NCBI GenBank assembly: GCA_051117335.1
Contig: JBNPEB010000035.1
Coordinates: forward strand, 67-64,066
Length of the DNA stretch: 64,000 nt
Direction of reading: 5' to 3'
Origin: Elainellaceae cyanobacterium
GTDB taxonomy: Bacteria > Cyanobacteriota > Cyanobacteriia > CAZCXK01
The first letter of the stretch is position 1, and every line of letters begins with the position of its first letter. Positions 8,862 through 28,650 of this stretch are shown piece after piece. A program made the position numbers and the translations under genes. Under the pieces are notes generated by a model. The model saw nothing but the letters and a program-made list of their open reading frames with translations. It was not told the DNA's origin and did not search any database.

Positions 8862-9488
8862 TCAGAGTTGAGGATGAAACCTGGCTCCAGTGCGCCCGGT
8901 GATGATCCACAGGATCGAGCGCCCAATGTCGCGTGAGATGTGCCAGAGGGTTTCGTTGGGGTGCTTGGAGGGAATGGCGACGGGGGTAGTGGTGATGCCG
9001 CGACTGCCGAAGACGAAGAAGGCGATCGCCCGTGCGCGTCGCATGTGAAAGTCGGAGGTGATGAGGTAGACGTGGTGAATGCGGCGATACGGGCTGCGCC
9101 CAGGCAAGCCAACGCGAAAGTCGCTGACGAGGGAGGTGAAGTTGGTGACGGTGTCGATGGCGCGACGATCGAGGTGGAGGCGACTTTCGGCAATGGCGGC
9201 GCGTTGAAAGATGGCTTTGGATTCTTGGGTGGGGGCACCGGAAGACACCCAAATGTCTAGATTGGGGTGTTGCTGTGCGAAGAGTGCAGTGAATCTTTCT
9301 CGTTCGGGAATTCCTCCAAGTGTAAGGATGGCTTGAGGAGTGGGGGGGTGGATCTGGGCGAGAATTAGGCGGACGGGAATGAAACTAATGAGAAGGACAA
9401 GGATGGTGATGGTAACGGCAACCCACATTTTGCGATAGATTTTTGGGCGGAGATACATCGAGATTCGGCTGATGAAAATGGTCAGCAT
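8862..9488 (-). CDS. YdcF/DUF218 family protein, copy 3, with an 8-aa insertion
   Basis: DTVTNF and LITSDFHMRRA motifs; VGLPGRSPY segment comes from the 24-nt element. Confidence 0.85.
   Translation of the reverse strand: MLTIFISRISMYLRPKIYRKMWVAVTITILVLLISFIPVRLILAQIHPPTPQAILTLGGIPERERFTALFAQQHPNLDIWVSSGAPTQESKAIFQRAAIAESRLHLDRRAIDTVTNFTSLVSDFRVGLPGRSPYRRIHHVYLITSDFHMRRARAIAFFVFGSRGITTTPVAIPSKHPNETLWHISRDIGRSILWIITGRTGARFHPQL
9089..9112. repeat. 24-nt HIP1-inserted element, family A, copy 1
   Basis: GCGAT[ACGGGCTGCGCCCAGGCAAGCCAA]CGC; empty GCGATCGC at the homologous position 7785-7792. Confidence 0.9.
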
Positions 9489-9540: not shown

Positions 9541-10365
9541 TCAATGTTCCTTTGGGTGAGACTGAGAGGTATTAGAAAAATCAGACAGGTCAGCTTCGAT
9601 GAGCTTGATGGAGAGCAGTAGCTCAGCGAGCATTCGCTGAAATGCGTAATACCATCCGCGCCAGCCATCAAGAATGCCGCCCTTGAGGATGAGGCAGTAG
9701 AGCAAAATCACGAAGGGAGCCAGAATTTTTTGCTGTCGAATGCGATCGCCCCAACTCAATTCTTCTAAAGCTGTTTCTTGAAGCTTCTTCACTTCGAGCA
9801 CCATGTAGCGGTCTTGTGCCCAGAGCCAGCGAGAGAGGGGTTTGCGATCGTCGTGATGAATGGGGTTTGTTAAGGATGCTGATTGTCCTTTCACCACTAA
9901 AAGCTGGGTATGTCCGTCATCGATGTAGTGCGTTGGCTTGCCTGGGCGCAGCCCGTCTTGCCTTTTGCGGAAAAGGGCTTGGCGGGGGGGCAAAATGGTT
10001 CCACGAAGGGGTTTGCCAAAGACGCAGTATTTGAAGGGGATGAAGTAACCATCAACGTCTGGGGAGGGGGAGAGGGCTTTTAGTTCATTAATGAGAGCAT
10101 CGGTGAGGACATAATCGGCATCGAGGGAAAGCACCCACTCGGTTTGAACATGGTCAATGCCTGCGTTCCATTGGTTGGCGTGGGTGTCGAACTTTCGTTG
10201 AACGGTTTCGACTTGTGGATAGGTTTTGAGAATGTCGAGGGTGTTATCTGTGCTGAAGCTATCGATAACAACAATGCGATCAGCCCAGGAAATAGGTTCA
10301 AGAGTACGTCTAATGTTATGTGCTTCGTTATAGGTAAGAATTAAAGGTGTGATATTCTGGAGCAT
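9541..10365 (-). CDS. glycosyltransferase family 2 (WaaE/LgtF-like), with an 8-aa insertion
   Basis: ILTYNEA, VIDSFSTD, LSLDADY motifs; 8 extra residues relative to 3847-4645. Confidence 0.9.
   Translation of the reverse strand: MLQNITPLILTYNEAHNIRRTLEPISWADRIVVIDSFSTDNTLDILKTYPQVETVQRKFDTHANQWNAGIDHVQTEWVLSLDADYVLTDALINELKALSPSPDVDGYFIPFKYCVFGKPLRGTILPPRQALFRKRQDGLRPGKPTHYIDDGHTQLLVVKGQSASLTNPIHHDDRKPLSRWLWAQDRYMVLEVKKLQETALEELSWGDRIRQQKILAPFVILLYCLILKGGILDGWRGWYYAFQRMLAELLLSIKLIEADLSDFSNTSQSHPKEH
9933..9956. repeat. 24-nt element, family A, copy 2, in a degenerate HIP1
   Basis: GCG[TTGGCTTGCCTGGGCGCAGCCCGT]CTTGC inside the GT2 gene. Confidence 0.85.
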
Positions 10366-18507: not shown

Positions 18508-19746
18508 TTATTCAAGCTTATTGAAAAGAAAAATTCTTGTTAATAGCAACATAGTAGCTAGCATATAGCTTGCAGATAAAGCAATTCCAAGACCAATTAA
18601 AGGATTGCTATATAGTTTAAGAAAAACTAAAAGTGAACAAAATGCGAATCCAAAATATTGCCCACTGCGTCCTAGTAACATCAATATATGCATCTTCCCC
18701 TTAGCAATAAAATATGATTTAAGCAGATTAAACAGAGTAGCACTTAATATGTAGCCATTCATAGAGAAGAATATTGCTACCACTGGTCGCCATACTTCTC
18801 CAAATATCATAGGAACTAATAAAGGAATCCCAAGTGCCATCAATACTATTGCTAAAGTAAGGAATCCAAATATTACCTTCAAACTTTTAATCAAAAATGA
18901 TTTTTGCCCATCAGCAGGATTTCGATGGCTAAAATAATTAATAGCCATTCGTTGTGAAAATGGTTGTAAAAACTGATGAGGTAGGATTGCAAGACGTTGA
19001 GCTTGGAAAAAATAACCTGCTCCTGTCTCTCCTGAAAAAATCCCTACAGTTAATATTACAAGCCGTCCAAATGAGCTTTCTAAAAAACCATCGAGCCAAA
19101 ATGCTCGAACTTGCTTGAAAAGTTCTTGCCAATCCCTGAGTTTAAGCCATCGTAATGGAATAGGTTGTATTCCACGTATGTACTTCAATCCTAGGATCAA
19201 GCTTCCTTGACGGACAAGCTCACGTGCATACAAGACAATTGAGCCTATTCCAAGTAATGCCCCTATTACAGCGAATATATGACCTGAGGAATGTGCTATC
19301 GTTTCTAATAAACTTAAATTCTTATATCGAAAGTTACGTTCATATAAGTTGATTTGCATTGATATCCAGTTCGTGGACAACGAACTTACCAAAAGTAAGG
19401 AAGCTTTTATATCAAGTTTATTGATTAAATATAGGATAGTTGAAGCAGCTATCAAGCCAACAAGGTTTTGCACAACATTTGCAGCTGCATACAAACTCAA
19501 TTTATCTTTTAATTCATCTTTTGGGGTTCTTAAGACAACGGTTCCGATAGGGATACTAATTATTGATTGAGCTAAACCAATATTAGCCATAACAATTGCA
19601 AAGCGACCGAAATCCTCAGGTAAAAGTATTCTAACTAATACAAGATTAGCTAAAAATGCTGTTGCCGCCTGAAAAACTGCTCCGCTCATCATCCATGCTG
19701 CATGACGGGCAATACTGCTTTGAACGCCTTTGAATCGTTTTCTCAA
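18508..19746 (-). CDS. Wzx-type oligosaccharide flippase
   Basis: LVRILLPEDFG motif and multiple TM helices. Confidence 0.85.
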   Translation of the reverse strand: MRKRFKGVQSSIARHAAWMMSGAVFQAATAFLANLVLVRILLPEDFGRFAIVMANIGLAQSIISIPIGTVVLRTPKDELKDKLSLYAAANVVQNLVGLIAASTILYLINKLDIKASLLLVSSLSTNWISMQINLYERNFRYKNLSLLETIAHSSGHIFAVIGALLGIGSIVLYARELVRQGSLILGLKYIRGIQPIPLRWLKLRDWQELFKQVRAFWLDGFLESSFGRLVILTVGIFSGETGAGYFFQAQRLAILPHQFLQPFSQRMAINYFSHRNPADGQKSFLIKSLKVIFGFLTLAIVLMALGIPLLVPMIFGEVWRPVVAIFFSMNGYILSATLFNLLKSYFIAKGKMHILMLLGRSGQYFGFAFCSLLVFLKLYSNPLIGLGIALSASYMLATMLLLTRIFLFNKLE

Positions 19747-19804
19747 ATAATGTTACTCCCTTAAGTATATTTATATAAAATTTGCAATTCAAAAAAGAAG
19801 TAAT

Positions 19805-20929
19805 TCAGCTTAGATGTATCGCAACTATGCTATCGTTTTTATTCTTATCAACACTGATTAATTCCACAAGAGTTCTTTCAATCCATTTCCTGAATAAGTG
19901 AAACTCCGATTCAATCTTAGTTAAGTCAGCTACATAAGCACCAGTTCTGGGATCGCAAGATATTGGGGCACGCTCAAAAATCTGTGGTCGTCTGTCGTTA
20001 GACTTAATATAATTTGAATAAAAAACTACAGGTTTTCCTGCAGCTAAAGTCACAACACATGAATGAACTCTATCTGAAATGGTAAGAGAAGTTCCCTGAT
20101 ATAAGCTTAAGTACGACAATGGGTTGAATGAGAGATATGAATTAGGCTTTGAAAAATCAACATTTATAAAGCTCGTCCCTATTCCATGATTAGGTCTGAT
20201 TATTTCATAAGAATCATAGCTGGAAGGAACATTTCTTAAAAATTCAAAATGCCTTAAATATTTCCAAAATAAACTATATTTTTCAAGCCTATAAGGCTGA
20301 ATATTAATATTCACTATTTCTTCATTCTCGATTTTTATGTAAATGTTCGGTTCAAAGTTTTTGTAGAATGAGAGAGTGATATATTTGTTGCTGCTTTTCA
20401 ATTTTGGCAATGGGCATAAAATATATGAGTAAAAAGCGCAGCATAAGCCATCATAGCAATTCTTAATAAATGGATTTAGTAAATCAAAAGTGTACCTATC
20501 CCTGCTCGATAATCCTAGTGGAGGATATTCTTGAAGGAAAGAAATAATTTTACTTAACTCGTGAGAATTTTCTTCTAAGCTAGAGTGAGAACTAAGGATA
20601 AGATAATCTGCTCCTTTCCTTTTAATCTCCTCGATAAAACTAGCATAATTTTCTAGGAAGCCAGCCCTGAATATTGGGCCAGAAAAGATATATATGTTTC
20701 CATCATAAATTTTCGATATGTTAAAAGCATTGTTCTTAAAGCGTTTTTTAGACGGGCTATTCAAACGAAATGCACGATTGATAGGACCATCTATCATGGC
20801 TACATTCGAGACATTTCCATACATTGACTTAAGCAAGTAATATATGGGGAACTGATAAAACCCGTCTCCTACATTGTTCCAAGTTGAGTTTTCGATTAAG
20901 ATGCTCTTCTGCTCTACGCATTTAGGCAT
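19805..20929 (-). CDS. polysaccharide pyruvyltransferase family protein
   Basis: NVGDGF N-terminal motif, SSRDRYT, ISDRVHSCV. Confidence 0.7.
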   Translation of the reverse strand: MPKCVEQKSILIENSTWNNVGDGFYQFPIYYLLKSMYGNVSNVAMIDGPINRAFRLNSPSKKRFKNNAFNISKIYDGNIYIFSGPIFRAGFLENYASFIEEIKRKGADYLILSSHSSLEENSHELSKIISFLQEYPPLGLSSRDRYTFDLLNPFIKNCYDGLCCAFYSYILCPLPKLKSSNKYITLSFYKNFEPNIYIKIENEEIVNINIQPYRLEKYSLFWKYLRHFEFLRNVPSSYDSYEIIRPNHGIGTSFINVDFSKPNSYLSFNPLSYLSLYQGTSLTISDRVHSCVVTLAAGKPVVFYSNYIKSNDRRPQIFERAPISCDPRTGAYVADLTKIESEFHLFRKWIERTLVELISVDKNKNDSIVAIHLS

Positions 20930-21307
20930 TTTTAGTTCTCCTGATTTATAGCTCTTACCGAGTCAAAAACTTTTATCAAAAGTCTGTGAAATCCAAAAGG
21001 GCAATAGAAGCATTGCCTAGACTTTGATAAGAAATCAACATGACCTATTAGTGCAGTACTTAGTAGCAACATGTTTTATCCGCTCTGCTCCGCAGATAAG
21101 TATGATATGAACTTCACCCATACGGCCTTTCATCCCATACAGCAAAACGCCTCTCATCATCTCTGTTCAACCTTTTGAATCAGCCATCAGGACAATGGGC
21201 GATACGCACACAGCGCAGGTAAATTAACGCCACAATTCACCCGCAACATTCTTAGTTCTCATCCCAAAAATCTAAGGATGTCGCCATTCCGTCTCCATGA
21301 ACACGAC

Positions 21308-21334
21308 AAAAAAAGAGTGAGCACTGCTCACTCT
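21308..21334 (-). terminator. intrinsic terminator in R1
   Basis: AGAGTGAGC-agt-GCTCACTCT stem followed by a T-run on the minus strand, downstream of the PIN gene. Confidence 0.75.
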
Positions 21335-21499
21335 CTAATCAAGAGGTTTGATGATGACCCTAACCATGCTCCATCAGCGCATGACCCAAAATCTAGATTA
21401 AGAGCCATAGCGTTCCAAACAGAAAACGGACACCCGTCAACCGAGACAATAAACCTGTAGACAGTCCTGACCCCATCGAAACCGTGAAGATTCAGGGCG

Positions 21500-21523
21500 T
21501 TGGCTTGCCTGGGCGCAGCCCGT
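21500..21523. repeat. 24-nt HIP1-inserted element, family A, copy 3
   Basis: GCG[TTGGCTTGCCTGGGCGCAGCCCGT]ATCGC at the right edge of R1. Confidence 0.9.
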
Positions 21524-21546
21524 ATCGCCCCTTCAAAACCCACCTT

Positions 21547-21936
21547 TCACAGTAACTTTCCATCAAGCTCCTCATACTTGGAAAACTGACGATCAACTGA
21601 CATTAAATCGCAATCGTGAGCGATCGCCGTTGCAATAATCAATCGATCTTGTGGATCTCGGTGATGCTCTGGAAGGTCTACCGCAATACTTGCAATTTGT
21701 GGAGTGATAGACAGGAGAGTAACATCAGAACCCTCAAGTGCTCTTTCAAACCAGGTTATTCGATCAATCGACAACTCGATGCGCCCATGACCGTCTAGCC
21801 AAGCAACCTCAAAACAACTAATAGCAGACACTGCCACAGCATCGCTCGACTCAATCTGTTCCTTTCGCGCTGCTCCAAGCTTCGCAATGTCTTCGTTAAT
21901 CCACCACAGCCAGATGTGAGTATCCAAAACAATCAT
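21547..21936 (-). CDS. VapC-like PIN toxin (PIN1)
   Basis: MIVLDTHIWLW, SAISCFE, HRDPQDRLIIATA motifs; ATGA overlap with the upstream antitoxin. Confidence 0.9.
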   Translation of the reverse strand: MIVLDTHIWLWWINEDIAKLGAARKEQIESSDAVAVSAISCFEVAWLDGHGRIELSIDRITWFERALEGSDVTLLSITPQIASIAVDLPEHHRDPQDRLIIATAIAHDCDLMSVDRQFSKYEELDGKLL

Positions 21937-22214
21937 TGAGGAAGATTCCAATCACTTTCCGGAATCGTATCAATGATGTCGCCTAAAGTTGTCATCTTTC
22001 CCGCAATATCAGAGTGAGGAGCACGTCGCTTAGTTGTTGGGGCACTCACAGTGTCAATCACCAGAAAAATAGCCTCAAACTGCTTATTCGGTGGTAACTT
22101 AGGGACATGCTTTAAGTTCCCCGATGCATCTGTTTCCAGCATCAACCGTTCTGCATCCATTGCTGAGTCTCCCATTAACCTGGCTTCTCTACGCTTATAG
22201 CACAGTCCCAGCAA
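21933..22214 (-). CDS. putative VapB-like antitoxin AT1
   Basis: Small gene coupled to PIN1; true start probably MGDSA or MDAER. Confidence 0.7.
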   Translation of the reverse strand: MLGLCYKRREARLMGDSAMDAERLMLETDASGNLKHVPKLPPNKQFEAIFLVIDTVSAPTTKRRAPHSDIAGKMTTLGDIIDTIPESDWNLPQ

Positions 22215-22300
22215 TCATTCACACAGACGCAATACACACCACGTGTAGATAGGTCACGCCACGGATTACTCGCAACTTTCTTAGCTCTCATCATGCACAC

Positions 22301-22560
22301 CTGAGGATGCCGCCATTCCGTCTTCATGAACACGACGAAAAAAAAGAGTGAGCACTGCTCACTCCTTGATAAAGAGGTTTGATGATGACCCTAACCCTGC
22401 CCCATCAGCGCATGACCCAAACTCTAGATTAAGAGCCGTAGAGTTCCAAACAGAAAGCGTACACCACTCAACCTAGACAATAAACCTGTAGACAATCCTA
22501 ACCCCATCGAAACCATGAAGATTTAGGGACTTTTACTCGCCTGGGCATCACCCGTATCGC
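22301..22560. repeat. non-coding repeat R, copy 2, ending in a degenerate family A element
   Basis: Alignment to R1; GCCTGGGC..CCCGTATCGC at 22539-22560; terminator-like hairpin 22338-22364. Confidence 0.88.
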
Positions 22561-22604
22561 CCCTCTTGGCCTCCACTCACCCTACACACGACTTGGCAAA
22601 CTTT

Positions 22605-22661
22605 ACGAAGAAAAAAGGGTTGTGGGCGCGCAACGCGCGCCCACAACCCTTTTTTCTTCGT
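22605..22661. terminator. perfect 27-bp inverted repeat, probable bidirectional terminator / REP-like palindrome
   Basis: ACGAAGAAAAAAGGGTTGTGGGCGCGC-aac-GCGCGCCCACAACCCTTTTTTCTTCGT. Confidence 0.75.
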
Positions 22662-22742
22662 TGCAATTGGAGAAGTTTGCCAAGTCGTACCTACAAACTC
22701 TGAGGGTGAATCATCAGGATGGTGTTATCAGAAGAGAGGGCG

Positions 22743-22766
22743 TTGGCTTGCCTGGGCGCAGCCCGT
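22743..22766. repeat. 24-nt HIP1-inserted element, family A, copy 5
   Basis: GCG[TTGGCTTGCCTGGGCGCAGCCCGT]ATCGC. Confidence 0.9.
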
Positions 22767-22798
22767 ATCGCTCTATATCTTTCCTTGAATCCCACCAC

Positions 22799-23173
22799 CT
22801 ACAACCGTTCAAGCAGTGGATCAAAAAGCTTTAAATCAGGAATCCACCGGAAATCATCCGTATTGTGGGTCAGTAGCGTTAGGTCATACCGGAGAGCAGT
22901 TCCCGCAACCAATGAATCTCCTAGTGACAATTTACGCTGTTGTCTCAGTTCAATCGCTTGAGTCGCAACATCATGCGTAACGGGCAGAATATCCGTAACG
23001 TCAAAAAATTCCTCAAAAAATTGGCGATCGCAGTCACTCAGCTTGTGATATCCAAAGACCTCAACATAGCTGACTAGAGACACTGAAGGAGCATGCTCAG
23101 CAATAAAATCCCGTAACACTTCGTTTTGAGGCTGAGCCGCATAAATAATGAGATTACTATCCAGCAACATCAC
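22799..23173 (-). CDS. VapC-like PIN toxin (PIN2)
   Basis: LLDSNLIIY, SYVE, LGDSLVAGTAL, THNTDDF motifs; ATGA overlap with AT2. Confidence 0.9.
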   Translation of the reverse strand: MMLLDSNLIIYAAQPQNEVLRDFIAEHAPSVSLVSYVEVFGYHKLSDCDRQFFEEFFDVTDILPVTHDVATQAIELRQQRKLSLGDSLVAGTALRYDLTLLTHNTDDFRWIPDLKLFDPLLERL

Positions 23174-23505
23174 GATTCACGATCAGGTAGCCCTCGCTCC
23201 TGTCGGATATCCCGTTGCCACATGAATGGATCAACATCACTAAATGTTCCTCCCTCAGCAACTTTAGCCAGTGCAGCAGCCATTGCCTTGCCCCGGTTTA
23301 AGGATGAGATAGAACGCTCCTCAGGTTGCATGGCAGGCACATCACCAACAACCAGAAAAATAGCCTCCAATTGCTTATTCGGTGGCAACTTAGGAACATG
23401 CCTTAAATTTCCCGATGCATCTGTTTCCAGAATTAACCGTTCTGCATCCATTGCTGAGTTTCCCATCCACATGGCTTCTCTAATCTTATCGCACAATCCC
23501 AGCAA
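23170..23505 (-). CDS. putative VapB-like antitoxin AT2
   Basis: Shares the MDAER..EAIFLV segment with AT1/AT3 but has a DPFMWQRDIRQERGLP tail. Confidence 0.7.
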   Translation of the reverse strand: MLGLCDKIREAMWMGNSAMDAERLILETDASGNLRHVPKLPPNKQLEAIFLVVGDVPAMQPEERSISSLNRGKAMAAALAKVAEGGTFSDVDPFMWQRDIRQERGLPDRES

Positions 23506-23638
23506 TCATTCGCATAGACACAGTACACACAACGTGTGGATACATCATTACATCGCGAACACTACCACATAAATCAAAGCTTCTTTTTTCACCCCGTAAT
23601 TGGCAACTTACGAACCTGTACAGGTTTATCCTCTACCG

Positions 23639-23881
23639 TCAAAGCCTAACCGTCTTTGAGTTCCTGGTAACTCGATCTGAAACAGCCCAAGCCGCATAGT
23701 TGAGCGCTTGTTGAATATCCTCAGCTTCCAACTCTGGATACGCCTCAAGTATTTCTGAAATCGATAGACCGCTCGCAAGTAGCTTCAAAATAAAACCAAC
23801 AGTGATTCGCATTTCACGAATCGTTGGCTGTCCCAAGCAAACCATTGGATTGAGGGTAATTCTATCAAGTGGGTTCGTCAT
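23639..23881 (-). CDS. DUF433 domain protein (orphan)
   Basis: RITLNP..CLGQPTIR.MRITV..IL..LASG..YPELE.EDI..ALNYAA. Confidence 0.88.
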   Translation of the reverse strand: MTNPLDRITLNPMVCLGQPTIREMRITVGFILKLLASGLSISEILEAYPELEAEDIQQALNYAAWAVSDRVTRNSKTVRL

Positions 23882-23985
23882 TTGGAAACGAATATACAGT
23901 GCCTATTCGAAATGTTAGCTGATCTCAGAGCCTCCAATCGACTCCATAATGCACCCGCATTCGTCTTATGTCTCATCACGAACAC

Positions 23986-24163
23986 CTAAGGATGTCGCCA
24001 TTCCGTCTCCATAACCACGAAAAAAAAAGAGTGAGCACTGCTCACTCTTCAATCAAGAGGTTTGATGATGACCATGACCATGCTCCATCAGCGCATGACC
24101 CAAAATCTAGATTAAGAGCCGTAGAGTTCCGAACAGAAAACGTACAGCTCTCAACCTAGACAA
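23986..24163. repeat. non-coding repeat R, copy 3
   Basis: Alignment to R1/R2; hairpin 24027-24049 plus minus-strand T-run, directly downstream of 24170-24544. Confidence 0.88.
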
Positions 24164-24169
24164 AATTCA

Positions 24170-24544
24170 CTACGCCGCCGCAGCAGGTTGCGCCGCAGCA
24201 GGTTGCGATCGCACTGGGCGTTTCCGCTCACTCTTCCGCTTTCCTCCTGCCATCTCATACTCATTGCTATTCTTCCCATAGGTCGTCGCAATGCCCATCA
24301 GCATCAGCTCCGACATATCCTTCAGCTCCTTCTCCGCCGCCTCCACATCATTAATCAAACTATCAAGCTTCGAAAGCGCCATGTTATAGTCCGACAGAAG
24401 AGTTCTCAAATGCGAAATTTTCGAGTTGTAATTGTCCAGAGACAACCCATTTCCCATATCCAACTTGAGATCAATCGACTGGATTGCCACAGCTCGCAAC
24501 TCAGACTTATTCAAAACCGGAGACGTTCTTTTTTTTCTAGGCAT
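24170..24544 (-). CDS. hypothetical helical protein with basic termini
   Basis: 124-aa ORF, amphipathic helices, YEMAGGKRKSERKRP end; resembles an uncharacterised family I recall from cyanobacteria (not verified). Confidence 0.75.
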   Translation of the reverse strand: MPRKKRTSPVLNKSELRAVAIQSIDLKLDMGNGLSLDNYNSKISHLRTLLSDYNMALSKLDSLINDVEAAEKELKDMSELMLMGIATTYGKNSNEYEMAGGKRKSERKRPVRSQPAAAQPAAAA

Positions 24545-24944
24545 TGCCTTAAACTTCCTGATGTGTAGAATTACCCGTCTTTCAACCCGCAGTGATTACC
24601 GTGAGAACATCCTCAATAGAACTCCCTCAATAGAATCCACCCTGAAGAAATCCTCAATCCCATGTTTCGTAAAGACTCTTCTACTCTAATCAGACCCATA
24701 TCTTCCAGGGTTGAGCAAGAACACGGAAACGATTGCAAACCATGCTGCGATATTAAAAAAAAGTGTCGTATTGTTACGGAACCGATTTAAGAGGATATTG
24801 ACCTCGTTTTTTTACGCTACCCATCCATCCAATACGACGAGAGACAAACCCCATTCTCAAAAACTTCCATCACACTCGATTGCACGTTAATGAAATCGAT
24901 ATTTGCTTATATCTACGTTGATTAGACTTAAACGAAACTTATAT

Positions 24945-25457
24945 TCAGAACAACCAACTCGATTCAACTCCTATCGAATCGAGTTTGACTTCCATCAAAT
25001 CGAGTTTGACTCTTATTGAATCGAATTTGACTTCCATCAAACTCGATTCAACTCTTATCAAAGCGAGTGCCTCTGGTTCCTTTTCTCTAAATGGGAACCC
25101 CATAAGCATGTCAAAAAAATGGCGAAATGCTCTTAACGAATTGAGCAATCCATAACTCTCTGTTGAGATGACTGCAAGGCGAACCCCATCGATAGATTGA
25201 GTCATGCGCTGTAATAGCAAGCTGTGCCAGTGAGAAGTATTTGACACATTATTCTCGAAGTATGATGCAATAAGCTTTAGCAAGTCTTCGATTGCACTGT
25301 AACTGTTGTGCAACTGATAGGCCACGCCCTCCAACTTCTCAGGATTACCTGGAGCCAAACCTTTGGATCGCTCCTCCAGTAATGCAAACACTCGTTCAAT
25401 GGCTTGCCGCTGAGCCAAAATATCTGCCTTCAGGACAGCTAGCTCATTCTCCTGCAT
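24945..25457 (-). pseudogene. HepT-like HEPN RNase toxin, frameshifted
   Basis: LHNSYSAIE, WHSLLL; LRAFRHFF then -1 shift (adding one base restores RHFFRHAYG); the ORF tail runs into the 21-bp repeats. Confidence 0.75.
24956..25065. repeat. 21-bp periodic repeat array
   Basis: About five 21-nt units starting AACTCGATT or AATCGA(G/A)TT. Confidence 0.7.
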
Positions 25458-25526
25458 AGCAGACCCCGCTGACGAATCCGTTCAGCAAAATGACACTCAG
25501 GCCTGCAATCGTAAGATAGGCAGTCC

Positions 25527-25885
25527 TTACAGCTCATTCCCTTCTGAGAGAATCGTTTTCGCCAATTCCGGACGACATCGCTCCATCGCCACCAAATCGA
25601 CCTTAAATTCAGGCGACACATACTGTAAGCATGCGATTGCTATCAAATAATCATCTTGAGACAATCCCCAAACCGCTAAGTCAACATCAGACGAAAGCGA
25701 AAACCACTGCCGATGACTCAACGAACCAAACACCATCACCCGTGTTGCACCATACTCTTGTTTCAAGATACATGCCGCCTGCTAAGCAACCGTCATCGCC
25801 CGCTCAAGTCGCTGAGCCAGTTGATTGTTTCTTTCTTCCTGGCGTTGTCTTAACGTTTCTCGATAGTCAGCAAGATGATGCACAG
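25527..25885 (-). pseudogene. MNT nucleotidyltransferase antitoxin with premature stop
   Basis: VFGSL..SDVDLAVWG..KVDLV; N-terminal helix separated by in-frame TAG at 25782-25784; 5' boundary approximate. Confidence 0.75.
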
Positions 25886-25941
25886 CTCTAGAGTTTGATG
25901 AATAGTCTCAGAATACAGCCAGATGTGAGTATCCAAAACAA

Positions 25942-26247
25942 TCATTGAGGCAGATTCCAATCACTTTCCGGAATCGTATCAATGAGGTCGCCCAAAATTC
26001 TCATCTTTCCCGCAATATCAGGGTGAGGAGCACGGCGCTTGATAGTTGGGGCACTTACAGTGTCAATCACCAGAAAAATAGCCTCCAACTGCTTATTCGG
26101 TGGCAACTTAGGAACGTACCTTAAATTTCCCGGTGCATCTGTTTCCAGGATTAATCGTTCTGCATCCATTGCTGAGTTCCCCATCAACATGGTTTCTCTA
26201 CGCTTAATCCCAACGATCATTAGCACAGACGCGATGCACGCCAGCAA
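25942..26247 (-). CDS. putative antitoxin AT3 (near-identical to AT1), followed by a ~10-codon PIN1 remnant
   Basis: Sequence match to 21933-22214; MIVLDTHIWL remnant at ~25916-25945. Confidence 0.7.
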   Translation of the reverse strand: MLACIASVLMIVGIKRRETMLMGNSAMDAERLILETDAPGNLRYVPKLPPNKQLEAIFLVIDTVSAPTIKRRAPHPDIAGKMRILGDLIDTIPESDWNLPQ

Positions 26248-26269
26248 TCCTCATTTTGAAACGTTATTT

Positions 26270-26440
26270 TGAAACGTTAGACCAATAGCCTGAGCCGCAA
26301 CATCATTCATGATTGGCAGGACATCTGTAATCTCAAAAAATTCTTCAAGAAACGGGCGGCGATCGCTCAACGTGTGATGCCCTAAGCATCTCAATATAAC
26401 TAACCAAAGAAACAGAAGGAGCATGTTCAGCAATAAAGAT
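26270..26440 (-). pseudogene. internal fragment of a PIN2-like toxin
   Basis: FIAEHAPSVSLVSY and FLEEFFEITDVLP..DVAAQAI match 22799-23173 in shifted frames. Confidence 0.7.
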
Positions 26441-26508
26441 CTGCGAAGGGGCGTCCTATAACTAGATTGTCATTTTTCCAATGATCTGCCGGGGATGGTT
26501 CAATCGAT

Positions 26509-26570
26509 TACGATGCAGTACTCTCAAAACTCGATTTGGCGTCATTAAAACTCGATTCAACACCTCGTAT
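26509..26570. repeat. second 21-bp periodic array (AAACTCGATT units)
   Basis: AAACTCGATT twice at 21-nt spacing plus a degenerate unit; same core as 24956-25065. Confidence 0.55.
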
Positions 26571-26601
26571 TGGCCTCTAGCGAATTCTATACAATAACGG
26601 T

Positions 26602-27417
26602 ATGAGCCACGGTGTTTCATCTCAACATTCATCTCAATCCCAAGAAGCGCTCGAACAGCGACGACAAATCGCCCTACACGTCGCCGCCGAGAGCGATCGT
26701 CTGCTTCGCGATCAGTTCGGCGCAACCGGAGTGACGGTATTTGGTTCTCTAGCCGGACAAAGTCCCTGGCATTGGGATTCAGATATCGATTTGGCGGTCG
26801 AAGGGTTGGATTTTGAGCAGTGGTTAGCGGCAGTCGATGCAGTGCGGGCGATCGCTCCAGATTGGCTTTCCGTCGATGTCGTCCGTCTCGAAACCCTCAA
26901 TCCTGCCGTCCGCCATCGAGTATTACAGCAACATCAGATGACTCAAAACAAATTTCTCGCCTTAAAAGACCATCTCGATGACGAAGTTCGGGCACTGGAT
27001 CGGTGTGTTCAAGAACTTGTTCCAGCCATTGATCGAGCAAAAGAGCGACTAGAAAGCTACGATGTTTGGGCATTAGCGAGTTACATCAACGATTTTTATC
27101 GGCGCTGCGAACGCATGAGCGAACGGGTGGCGGTTGCCCTCGACGGACGCTTGCCCCAGGGAGCCAACTGGCACCAAGCCCTGTTGAGGCAGGTCGCAGA
27201 ACATGGAGGAAACGACCGTCCACCCGTGTGGTCGGGTGCGTTGTTGTTTGATTTAGATGAATATCGTCGGTTTCGGCACGTCGTGCATCACAAATATGGC
27301 GATGAGCTGCACCCCGACTATGTGCTCAAGCTAGCCGAACTTGCGCCCCAGATGGCCCCAAAAATCAAGGAGGCGATCGCGCACTTCAATGAGTGGCTTG
27401 TTGATCAGCCCTCCTAG
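26602..27417 (+). CDS. fused MNT nucleotidyltransferase - HepT-like HEPN protein
   Basis: N-terminal FGSL..SDID motif and C-terminal RHVVHHKY (RX4HXY) in one ORF. Confidence 0.85.
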   Translation: MSHGVSSQHSSQSQEALEQRRQIALHVAAESDRLLRDQFGATGVTVFGSLAGQSPWHWDSDIDLAVEGLDFEQWLAAVDAVRAIAPDWLSVDVVRLETLNPAVRHRVLQQHQMTQNKFLALKDHLDDEVRALDRCVQELVPAIDRAKERLESYDVWALASYINDFYRRCERMSERVAVALDGRLPQGANWHQALLRQVAEHGGNDRPPVWSGALLFDLDEYRRFRHVVHHKYGDELHPDYVLKLAELAPQMAPKIKEAIAHFNEWLVDQPS

Positions 27418-27419
27418 AC

Positions 27420-27720
27420 ATATCACGCTCTGCAACCCAGACTGCCTCTTGCATCAACGTCTGATAAAACCGGGATGGATTTGCCGCCATCTGCAGCCAC
27501 TCCGCCTGCGTATACACCACCGACTCGACTGGAACTGGAATCTCATTAAACTGCCAGCCCAGCGATCGCTGATGAAACAGGCGATCGCTCGCCTACACAA
27601 CGACAATCAAATCCAAATCACTGCCAACCCCTGCATCTCCCCTCGCAGCGGCAACACCGACGAAGGAAATTGTGTCGCCATCGCTACTGCTCCAACTCAC
27701 CCTATTTAGGGTAACAGCGG
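27420..27720 (-). pseudogene. degraded MNT nucleotidyltransferase
   Basis: ARGDAGVGSDLDLIVVV*ASDR..PVPVESVVYTQAEW on the minus strand; in-frame stop and scrambled 5' end. Confidence 0.65.
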
Positions 27721-27798
27721 CTTGATTCCTCCACGGTTGTTCTCCACTGCTGCTAAATATCCAGTTGATCCGTGGGATGGGTTAAACGAGGGCCTTTT

Positions 27799-28650
27799 CT
27801 AGTCTGCATCTGGATCAATTCCCATTTGCCGAAGACGTTCGGCTAAACGATCGGCCCGTTGACGTTCCCGTTCTGCGCGTTGGCGCTCCTGGTCTGCGCG
27901 TTGACGCTCCTGGTTTGCCCGCTGGCGCTCCTGTTCTACCCGTTGGCGCTCCTGTTCTACCCGTTGGCGCTCCTGCTCAACTCGCTGCTGTTCCTGTTCA
28001 ACAGGGGTCAAAATCCAGTTTTGGTCTTTGTCATACCACCTGAGCCAGAGTCGATTAATGCCTTCATAGTGTCCTTGCCAGAGTCCTAACCCAAGTTCTA
28101 AAGACTCCATCCAGATGCGCGGTTCATCAAGCTCTAGTTCCATATAGCGATCTGCTTGGAGCATGAAGCTTCGCAGCCGATCGGTGTATCGGTCGAAGAC
28201 GACATAATATGGAATTCGCAGAATTTGCTCATATACCTGCCATTTGCTAGGAGGTTGATCTACACGACGAAGAGAGCGCCCCAAATCGTCTGCCTCAGTT
28301 CCAGGGGACAAGAGCTCAACCACAACAAATGGATCTACTCCCTCCTGCCATACGACATAGCTCAGCCGCAAATCACGCTCTTCGTATAGTCGAGGAATGC
28401 CCACGACGGCAAACCAATCAGGACGCTTATGCCAAAGGGGATGGCGGGAGTCATAGTAAAGATTGAGATCGGTTGCAGCAAATCGTTCGTGCTCTGCAAA
28501 GGTGGGAGGGCAAAACGTGTCGCTCAACAGCCGGGGTTGATAGATATGAAAAACATCTGGCAAACCAGGCTCCTCCGGATCTTCACTCGGAAGATCATAC
28601 ATGGTGGGCAAGACGTCTTTGGGGGAACGAGGTGGATCAGTTTGAAACAT
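27799..28650 (-). CDS. Uma2 family endonuclease with C-terminal QERQR coiled-coil repeats
   Basis: LPTMYDLPSEDP, RPDWFAV, VVELLSPGT; 21-nt tandem repeats in the 3' end. Confidence 0.9.
   Translation of the reverse strand: MFQTDPPRSPKDVLPTMYDLPSEDPEEPGLPDVFHIYQPRLLSDTFCPPTFAEHERFAATDLNLYYDSRHPLWHKRPDWFAVVGIPRLYEERDLRLSYVVWQEGVDPFVVVELLSPGTEADDLGRSLRRVDQPPSKWQVYEQILRIPYYVVFDRYTDRLRSFMLQADRYMELELDEPRIWMESLELGLGLWQGHYEGINRLWLRWYDKDQNWILTPVEQEQQRVEQERQRVEQERQRVEQERQRANQERQRADQERQRAERERQRADRLAERLRQMGIDPDAD

Follow-up and report, generated by a model that had tools for sequence, protein, structure and literature searches.

The window analysed here is a stretch of 64,000 nucleotides (nt) from an Elainellaceae cyanobacterium (assembly GCA_051117335.1, contig JBNPEB010000035.1, positions 67 to 64,066), and the element under study, named R, is a repeat which was found three times between the genes of a toxin-antitoxin (TA) array. 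R is probably a composite intergenic module rather than a dedicated RNA gene or a recombination site. It is built of separable parts and is not one functional unit; its main palindrome, H, belongs to a dispersed family of hairpins; R was found in a single further genome, which is of another cyanobacterial family; and the block that carries it is far more similar between the two genomes than a housekeeping gene is. This TA block, with repeats of the type found in genus g44 of the other family, has probably entered by horizontal transfer followed by local duplication and rearrangement, as judged from sequence comparison.

Read along the minus strand, R begins with a 24-nt insert in a highly iterated palindrome 1 (HIP1) site, in R1 and R2 only, and an old, decaying copy of H (~79 nt), which resembles a MITE (miniature inverted-repeat transposable element). 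These are followed by a short stretch in which a CATGGT hexamer varies by slippage, a strong intrinsic terminator ending the upstream gene or TA operon, and the sequence that precedes the next antitoxin-PIN operon, a putative promoter/operator. A block of leader, antitoxin, PIN, HIP1 insert, H and terminator would have been acquired horizontally from a lineage rich in H and in a second MITE, and would then have been duplicated segmentally in place, so that the junction of core, terminator and leader is now threefold. The terminator and the leader appear to be the only working parts, and the repeats and the common N-terminus and leader of the antitoxins would be no more than passive stretches of homology through which modules can be duplicated, deleted or swapped.

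Composition of R

All coordinates are window positions, and R and its genes are read on the minus strand. The three copies were found to be direct repeats with a pairwise identity of 86.2% for R1/R2 (over 311 nt), 87.7% for R1/R3 and 88.1% for R2/R3, and they are the only copies in the genome of the strain (5.9 Mb). R3 was found without the upstream 85 nt that are present in R1 and R2. The copies and their parts are located as follows:

21227 to 21535, minus strand: R1, whole repeat unit (self-BLAST and alignment), after PIN1 and before a decayed antitoxin leader, then the polysaccharide genes
22256 to 22564, minus strand: R2, whole repeat unit (self-BLAST and alignment), passing directly into the antitoxin1 leader
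23944 to 24163, minus strand: R3, whole repeat unit (self-BLAST and alignment), beginning at the stop codon of gene 24170-24544
21500 to 21523, minus strand: upstream edge of R1, with a HIP1 site that holds the 24-nt insert (ACGGGCTGCGCCCAGGCAAGCCAA); other copies of the insert at about 22532-22555 (R2 edge, degenerate) and 22743-22766 (after PIN2, exact)
24092 to 24171, minus strand: H in R3, found with the covariance model (R2 scores 83.8 bits), hairpin of -29.9 kcal/mol (z = -6.9), the best preserved
22409 to 22487, minus strand: H in R2 (covariance model), hairpin partly decayed, -19.5 kcal/mol (z = -2.7)
21378 to 21456, minus strand: H in R1 (covariance model), hairpin decayed, -14 kcal/mol (z = -0.7)
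24055 to 24101, minus strand: middle stretch of R3 with GGGTCATGCGCTGATGG, CATGGT-like hexamers and TCATCATCAAACCTCTT; the same content in R2 (22372-22418) and R1 (21341-21387)
24022 to 24050, minus strand: intrinsic terminator of R3 (terminator scan) with an 11-bp stem, a 3-nt loop and a T-run; also in R2 (22339-22367) and R1 (21308-21336)
23944 to 24021, minus strand: post-terminator part of R3, homologous to the antitoxin operon upstream region; the same homology in R2 (22256-22338, continuous with the antitoxin1 leader) and R1 (21227-21307)

The hairpin within R decays and is not maintained. The R-type hairpin of G060, a metagenome bin of a different family (genus g44), was found to fold with -14.6 kcal/mol (z = +0.4). 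Among the four R-type copies, compensatory changes were found in none of the 47 predicted pairs and the covariation term was +0.94 (unfavourable), with the low power of four sequences.

The middle stretch was found to contain GGGTCATGCGCTGATGG with three exact matches, and with up to 3 mismatches there were four matches against 0.13 expected by chance. The interior of the TGATGG/TCATCA stem contained one CATGGT-like hexamer more or fewer among the copies. The predicted fold of the stretch between H and the terminator differed from copy to copy, and the terminator alone was constant. The hairpin GAGTGAGC-agt-GCTCACTC occurred three times against 0.01 expected; in each of the three copies it was called by the terminator scan and was found on the gene strand, after a stop codon and with 7-9 T after the stem-loop. 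The block-wise identity was highest in the terminator (93-100% for all copies), followed by H and the middle stretch (83-93%) and the post-terminator part (73-81% among the window copies).

The post-terminator part was found to be separable from the rest of R in G060. There the stretch GTTCATGGAGACGGAATGGCG...GATGAGAGCTAAGAAAGTTGCGAG, which is post-terminator in R, was found upstream of the antitoxin without the R core, and the R core with its terminator was found downstream of PIN without this stretch. Since the two are present at separate places in G060, the sequence conserved past the terminator is that which precedes the antitoxin operon. The homology in the window extends 190 nt further past R (22251-22060 and 23542-23351), with 88% identity between antitoxin1 and antitoxin2, and reaches about 35 codons into both genes. 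Beyond these codons the C-termini of the antitoxins were found to be unrelated, as were PIN1 and PIN2.

The search of Rfam with positions 19000-28000 (E <= 1) gave nothing in R, and its single match, a chance one, was the 103-nt palindrome between PIN2 and R2. A coding role of R was rejected, as a 7-nt indel in G060 disrupts the plus-strand open reading frames (ORFs) of 42-63 amino acids (aa) across R; on the minus strand no ORF was found in common to the R copies.

These results agree for the most part with a preliminary description of the array. The threefold occurrence of R, the order of the genes from gene 24544-24170 to the polysaccharide genes (by ORFs and Pfam) and the filled HIP1 sites at the borders of R1 and R2 were all confirmed, and the motifs quoted for R were found at the expected places far above chance. 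The proposed terminator and the conservation beyond it were likewise recovered, by the terminator scan and by alignment, respectively. Two readings were revised. The TGATG/CATCA stem with a variable interior is present, and the interior is better read as variation in the number of CATGGT-like hexamers; the 27-bp palindrome noticed between PIN2 and R2 is there and is in fact the centre of a 103-nt MITE.

Repeat families and the origin of the block

A covariance model of the full-length R core was searched over 400 genomes of the class. The matches were mostly a generic hairpin plus terminator, and several from genus g44 (G060 and a second genome, G135) resembled the first R hairpin. The H family was recognised because these g44 matches shared the sequence of that hairpin. 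A model of H was then built from 10 aligned sequences, with a hairpin of 31 pairs in about 79 nt (consensus TAAACCTCGTCTAGGTTGGGAACTGTAGTTTTCCCGCAGGGAAAACTACAGTTCCCAACTTGGTTTGGGTTTA). In this alignment 85.6% of the cells were paired and 12 pairs were found to have changed in a compensatory way, where shuffling gave 7.4 +/- 1.5 and reached 12 in none of 500 trials, and the signal collapsed in a control in which the 3′ partners were slid by 1-3 columns.

The H model gave, with both strands counted, 135 matches in G135 and 62 in G060, followed by 3 to 7 in three other relatives and one in G001. The genome of the strain contained seven matches, namely the three R copies and weak, diverged relatives. 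The 52 copies of H that were inspected individually were intergenic with unique flanks and few overlaps with long ORFs, and were found in both orientations to the neighbouring genes (11 co-directional against 12 anti-directional). Their mean fold was -40 kcal/mol, and owing to G-U pairs 44 of the 52 copies fold more stably on one strand. As the copies are oriented at random to genes, the asymmetry seems to go back to the founder copy and not to selection in transcripts. A TA target duplication would fit the ends TA-AACC...GGTT-TA, and no empty H site was found. H thus behaves as a dispersed MITE-like element; no parent transposase or matching insertion sequence (IS) ends were identified for it, and an IS bearing TAAACC...GGTTTA ends was not searched for.

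A second repeat family was found beside R2:

22587 to 22689, without strand: 103-nt MITE, a perfect palindrome with ends CACGACTTGGCAAA, flanked by the target duplication TGTAGG at 22581-22586 and 22690-22695

In G060 this MITE sits inside R with a TATAGG duplication (L008 1980-2092), and R1 and R2 were found to contain the empty site GTCTACAGGTTTATTG. Three g44 genomes contained 77, 54 and 24 matches to it and the genome of the strain a single locus, and none was found in G002 (of the same genus as the window, genus g1), G003, G013 or G039. The home of both repeat families of the array is therefore genus g44, not the genus of the window. The 24-nt HIP1-site insert was found in about 12 copies in the genome of the strain. 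Further such inserts are present in the window at 9089-9112 and 9933-9956 and on other contigs, and the first mini-hairpin of the insert varies by paired changes (GGGC/GCCC, GTGC/GCAC and GCGC/GCGC). The same-genus genomes G001 and G002 also contain several copies.

BLAST of 60 relatives found R in G060 only (contig CAYXJG010000463, 3.9 kb). The exact-pattern scan of 185,579 species genomes also found it in G060 only, together with a chimeric contig carrying sequence of the strain itself, and the scan of metagenomes gave one match, by chance. G060 was found to contain, attached to R, the antitoxin-PIN1 cassette at 90.5% identity over 671 nt, with 91.8% for the PIN 3′ end and HIP1 insert and 84% for the R core. 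The nucleotide identity of icd in the genome of the strain was 72.5% to G060 and 91.5% to G002. Since the block is 84-92% identical to that of G060 against about 72% for the housekeeping gene icd, horizontal transfer is the probable origin of the block. The direction of transfer is inferred from the abundance of the repeats in a few genomes. The neighbours of the block in G060, ABC-2 permease and Uma2-like genes, gave no nucleotide match in the genome of the strain. In G002 antitoxin2-PIN2 was found in a syntenic TA island and R was not found; where an empty site was sought, the contig ends inside PIN2 and its remainder was not found.

The chimeric contig is JAAUQO010000007.1 (L010 1-310), labelled as an Oscillochloris metagenome-assembled genome (MAG). 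This Chloroflexi contig of 62 kb opens with 310 nt of cyanobacterial sequence, which contain the 3′ end of gene X and R3 flanks with an R2-type core, followed by GC-rich unrelated sequence. It looks like an assembly chimera of low coverage in a public MAG. A gene conversion read from its R3/R2 hybrid was rejected as unreliable, the contig itself being chimeric.

Weighing of the explanations

Several observations weigh against the composite reading of R as set out above. The R3 hairpin is nearly perfect, which could reflect maintenance in that copy. One G135 copy (C55) resembles R beyond H and contains the second stem UGACGU/ACGUCA where R has UGAUGG/UCAUCA; because this stem differs by two paired changes, part of the middle stretch may be older and structured. 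The R copies have diverged by 12-16%, which is below the divergence at synonymous sites in the neighbouring antitoxin paralogues (0.20-0.29 for the window copies). Gene conversion or mild constraint may account for this weak sign, which is not significant in a comparison with the neutral rate over only about 52 synonymous sites (about 24 where 35 codons were compared). The direction of transfer depends on repeat abundance in few genomes, and the metagenome bin G060 is fragmented.

The different cargo beside the R copies (DUF433, antitoxin2-PIN2 and antitoxin1-PIN1) also suits an explanation in which R persists, along with the leader and N-terminus common to the antitoxins, because it serves as a portable homology arm, and TA cassettes are swapped, gained or lost between R copies by homologous recombination, for example after natural transformation. 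The leader and N-terminus of the two antitoxins are 88% alike with unrelated C-termini and toxins, R is present with its cassette in a genome of another family, and a near-identical strain has R3 flanks with an R2-type core. However, this hybrid comes from the low-coverage contig that is chimeric with Chloroflexi DNA and is possibly an assembly artefact, R was found in two genomes only, and the DUF433 insert was found without R-type or repeat borders. Any repeat is a passive recombination substrate, and no sign of selection for a homology-arm role was seen. It is unlikely that R is kept for this purpose, and its homology-arm role is probably passive. An exchange of unrelated toxin modules and small genes by homologous recombination alone, also across cyanobacterial families and possibly helped by the HIP1-site inserts, is given a similarly small chance; were portable homology arms real, the array would be the counterpart, without a recombinase, of the cassette arrays of integrons.

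It is decidedly unlikely that the R core is a small RNA, or a structured 3′ untranslated element regulating or stabilising the TA transcripts. In favour of it, the hairpins contain G-U pairs that can form on the gene strand alone, the first hairpin is followed at a distance of about 75 nt by a strong terminator, a TAATCT -10-like box is present upstream of GGGTCATG, and the G135 copy has the paired changes in its second stem. The -10-like box nevertheless reads GAATCT in G060, and the promoter scan found no promoter inside R. The folds of the 80-90-nt stretch are inconsistent between copies apart from the terminator, the R copies contained no compensatory pairs, and their first hairpin is in decay; the H family stands in both orientations to genes, and no Rfam match was obtained. 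A small RNA with its own promoter was rejected on the result of the promoter scan and on the inconsistent folds.

A plain in situ tandem duplication of a native TA operon and its flanks, without horizontal transfer and with terminator and promoter as the only functions, would agree with three R copies about equally distant from one another (86-88%), like the duplicated antitoxin leaders, and with the lack of compensatory change in R. Yet the units cannot be simple duplicates, as PIN1 is unrelated to PIN2 and the antitoxins have unrelated C-termini, both MITE types of the array are abundant only in another genus, and the block is far closer to G060 than the housekeeping gene is. This explanation is very unlikely. 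It was also the case that the preliminary description had set against its own proposal, and of that case the absence of covariation among the R copies was found, but R is also present in G060 and the H family covaries.

That R is an attC-like site of a cassette array served by the integron integrases of the genome is scarcely credible. R3 has a long imperfect palindrome, and in the genome of the strain two homologues of integron integrases were found to exceed the curated TIGR02249 cut-off; they are on contigs C66 and C13 and not on C64, the contig of the window. Both loci have attI-like direct repeats (ATATGYGGAAAG...), and that on C66 contains a VapBC-like first cassette with an attC-like hairpin CCAGCTAAC...GTTATGCTG. 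The integrase loci, however, use CCAGCTAAC...GTTAGC/GTTATGC sites, and the attC scan found no attC-like site on C64. In R3 a GTTGAGA-like box was found before a TCTTAAT-like box on either strand, so that the GTT-like box precedes the AAC-like box in the reverse of the order expected for attC, R''(RYYYAAC)-L''...L'-R'(GTTRRRY). The R hairpin is without AAC/GTT triplets, no intI or attI is adjacent to R, and R has a length of 220-310 nt with a terminator and a promoter region. R was rejected as attC on the wrong box order, the missing triplets and the lack of a matching site on the contig. The integrase loci are at C66:1252-3400 and C13:168021-169480, and one of them has an in-frame TAG.

The composite module thus remains the preferred explanation, and the proposals of the preliminary description are to be read accordingly. 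R is more than a terminator, as had been proposed, since it holds a palindromic element of a covarying family, and it has travelled with cargo, the same antitoxin-PIN cassette being present with R in G060. Of the suggestion that R is a structured RNA or a recombination element, only the presence of a structured element stood; R as a whole is a mosaic with no compensatory pairs, a decaying hairpin and no attC features.

Known systems and surroundings of the array

Like the spacers between tandem type II VapBC-like TA operons, R was found to contain a strong terminator after each toxin gene, and beyond the terminator comes the stretch that precedes the following antitoxin gene, conserved together with the antitoxin N-terminal domain. 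This domain is the usual DNA-binding, autoregulatory part of an antitoxin. Unlike plain TA-operon spacers, R also carries relics of mobile elements, next to its putative promoter/operator role. The array resembles integron arrays in its small, mostly TA-type cassettes, which are split by a repeated element with an imperfect palindrome, and in the integrases present in the genome. It differs from them in that R is much longer and holds a terminator and a promoter region, and the true attC-like sites of the genome differ from it in sequence.

MITE-like palindromic repeats include Nezha and MaeMITE of cyanobacteria, Correia of Neisseria, ERIC and RUP, and MITEs are common in cyanobacteria (PMC3184786). 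H (~79 nt) and the 103-nt element resemble bacterial MITEs as short, non-coding and very stable intergenic hairpins in either orientation, which reach tens to more than 100 copies per genome, and the 103-nt element also has a 6-bp target duplication with a pair of filled and empty sites. H is shorter than the cyanobacterial MITEs described (130-435 bp; PMC3184786). R itself is not a MITE and contains a decayed one. Repetitive extragenic palindromic (REP) sequences, bacterial interspersed mosaic elements (BIME) and SPRITE-type repeats are likewise palindromic and extragenic, and in 3′ untranslated regions they can stabilise or terminate transcripts (PMC3733652, PMC3184786). The inner stem of H is often GTAG...CTAC around a small hairpin, as in REP. 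H differs from REP in its greater length and in that GTAG is not conserved and changes along with its pairing partner.

The array shows how a seemingly conserved non-coding element with exchangeable cargo can arise from ordinary parts, namely the relic of a MITE, a terminator and a promoter region that were duplicated jointly with TA cassettes. It offers a well-supported example of a TA block moved between cyanobacterial families, with the repeats of the donor as a fingerprint, and two small palindromic repeat families (~79 nt and ~103 nt), apparently undescribed, which are usable as markers of transfer. No new kind of RNA or recombination system was revealed.

The genes of the array are as follows:

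21547 to 22160, minus strand: antitoxin1 (21933-22160) and PIN1 toxin (21547-21936), ORFs, Pfam PIN with E = 1.4e-17
22799 to 23451, minus strand: antitoxin2 (23170-23451) and PIN2 toxin (22799-23173), Pfam PIN with E = 5.5e-11
23639 to 23881, minus strand: DUF433 gene, Pfam DUF433 with E = 2.2e-23
24170 to 24544, minus strand: gene of 124 aa, function not assigned, directly upstream of R3

On the minus strand, gene 24170-24544 was found to be followed by R3, the DUF433 insert, antitoxin2 and PIN2, the HIP1-site insert, the 103-nt palindrome and R2, and then by antitoxin1 and PIN1, R1, a pyruvyl transferase and other polysaccharide genes. By the breakpoints of homology, the DUF433 gene lies inside an insert of about 389 nt (23548-23943) between R3 and the antitoxin2 leader. 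The 124-aa gene, for which Pfam gave no match, is a member of a multi-copy family with five matches in the genome of the strain and up to 12 in one relative, and a match was present in 14 of the 61 genomes searched.

The TA island was found to be arranged differently in each genome. In the window a third antitoxin copy (25942-26247, region 25915-26247) keeps only about 30 nt of PIN1, followed by an MNT-HepT pair (24945-25766), and a PIN2-like fragment is present at 26283-26398. In G060 a similar MNT-HepT module interrupts PIN1 after codon 88 (L008 2258-3255). In G002 antitoxin2-PIN2 directly adjoins a truncated MNT gene, near an MNT-HEPN fusion and Uma2 genes (L019, contig C70, 2632-3267).

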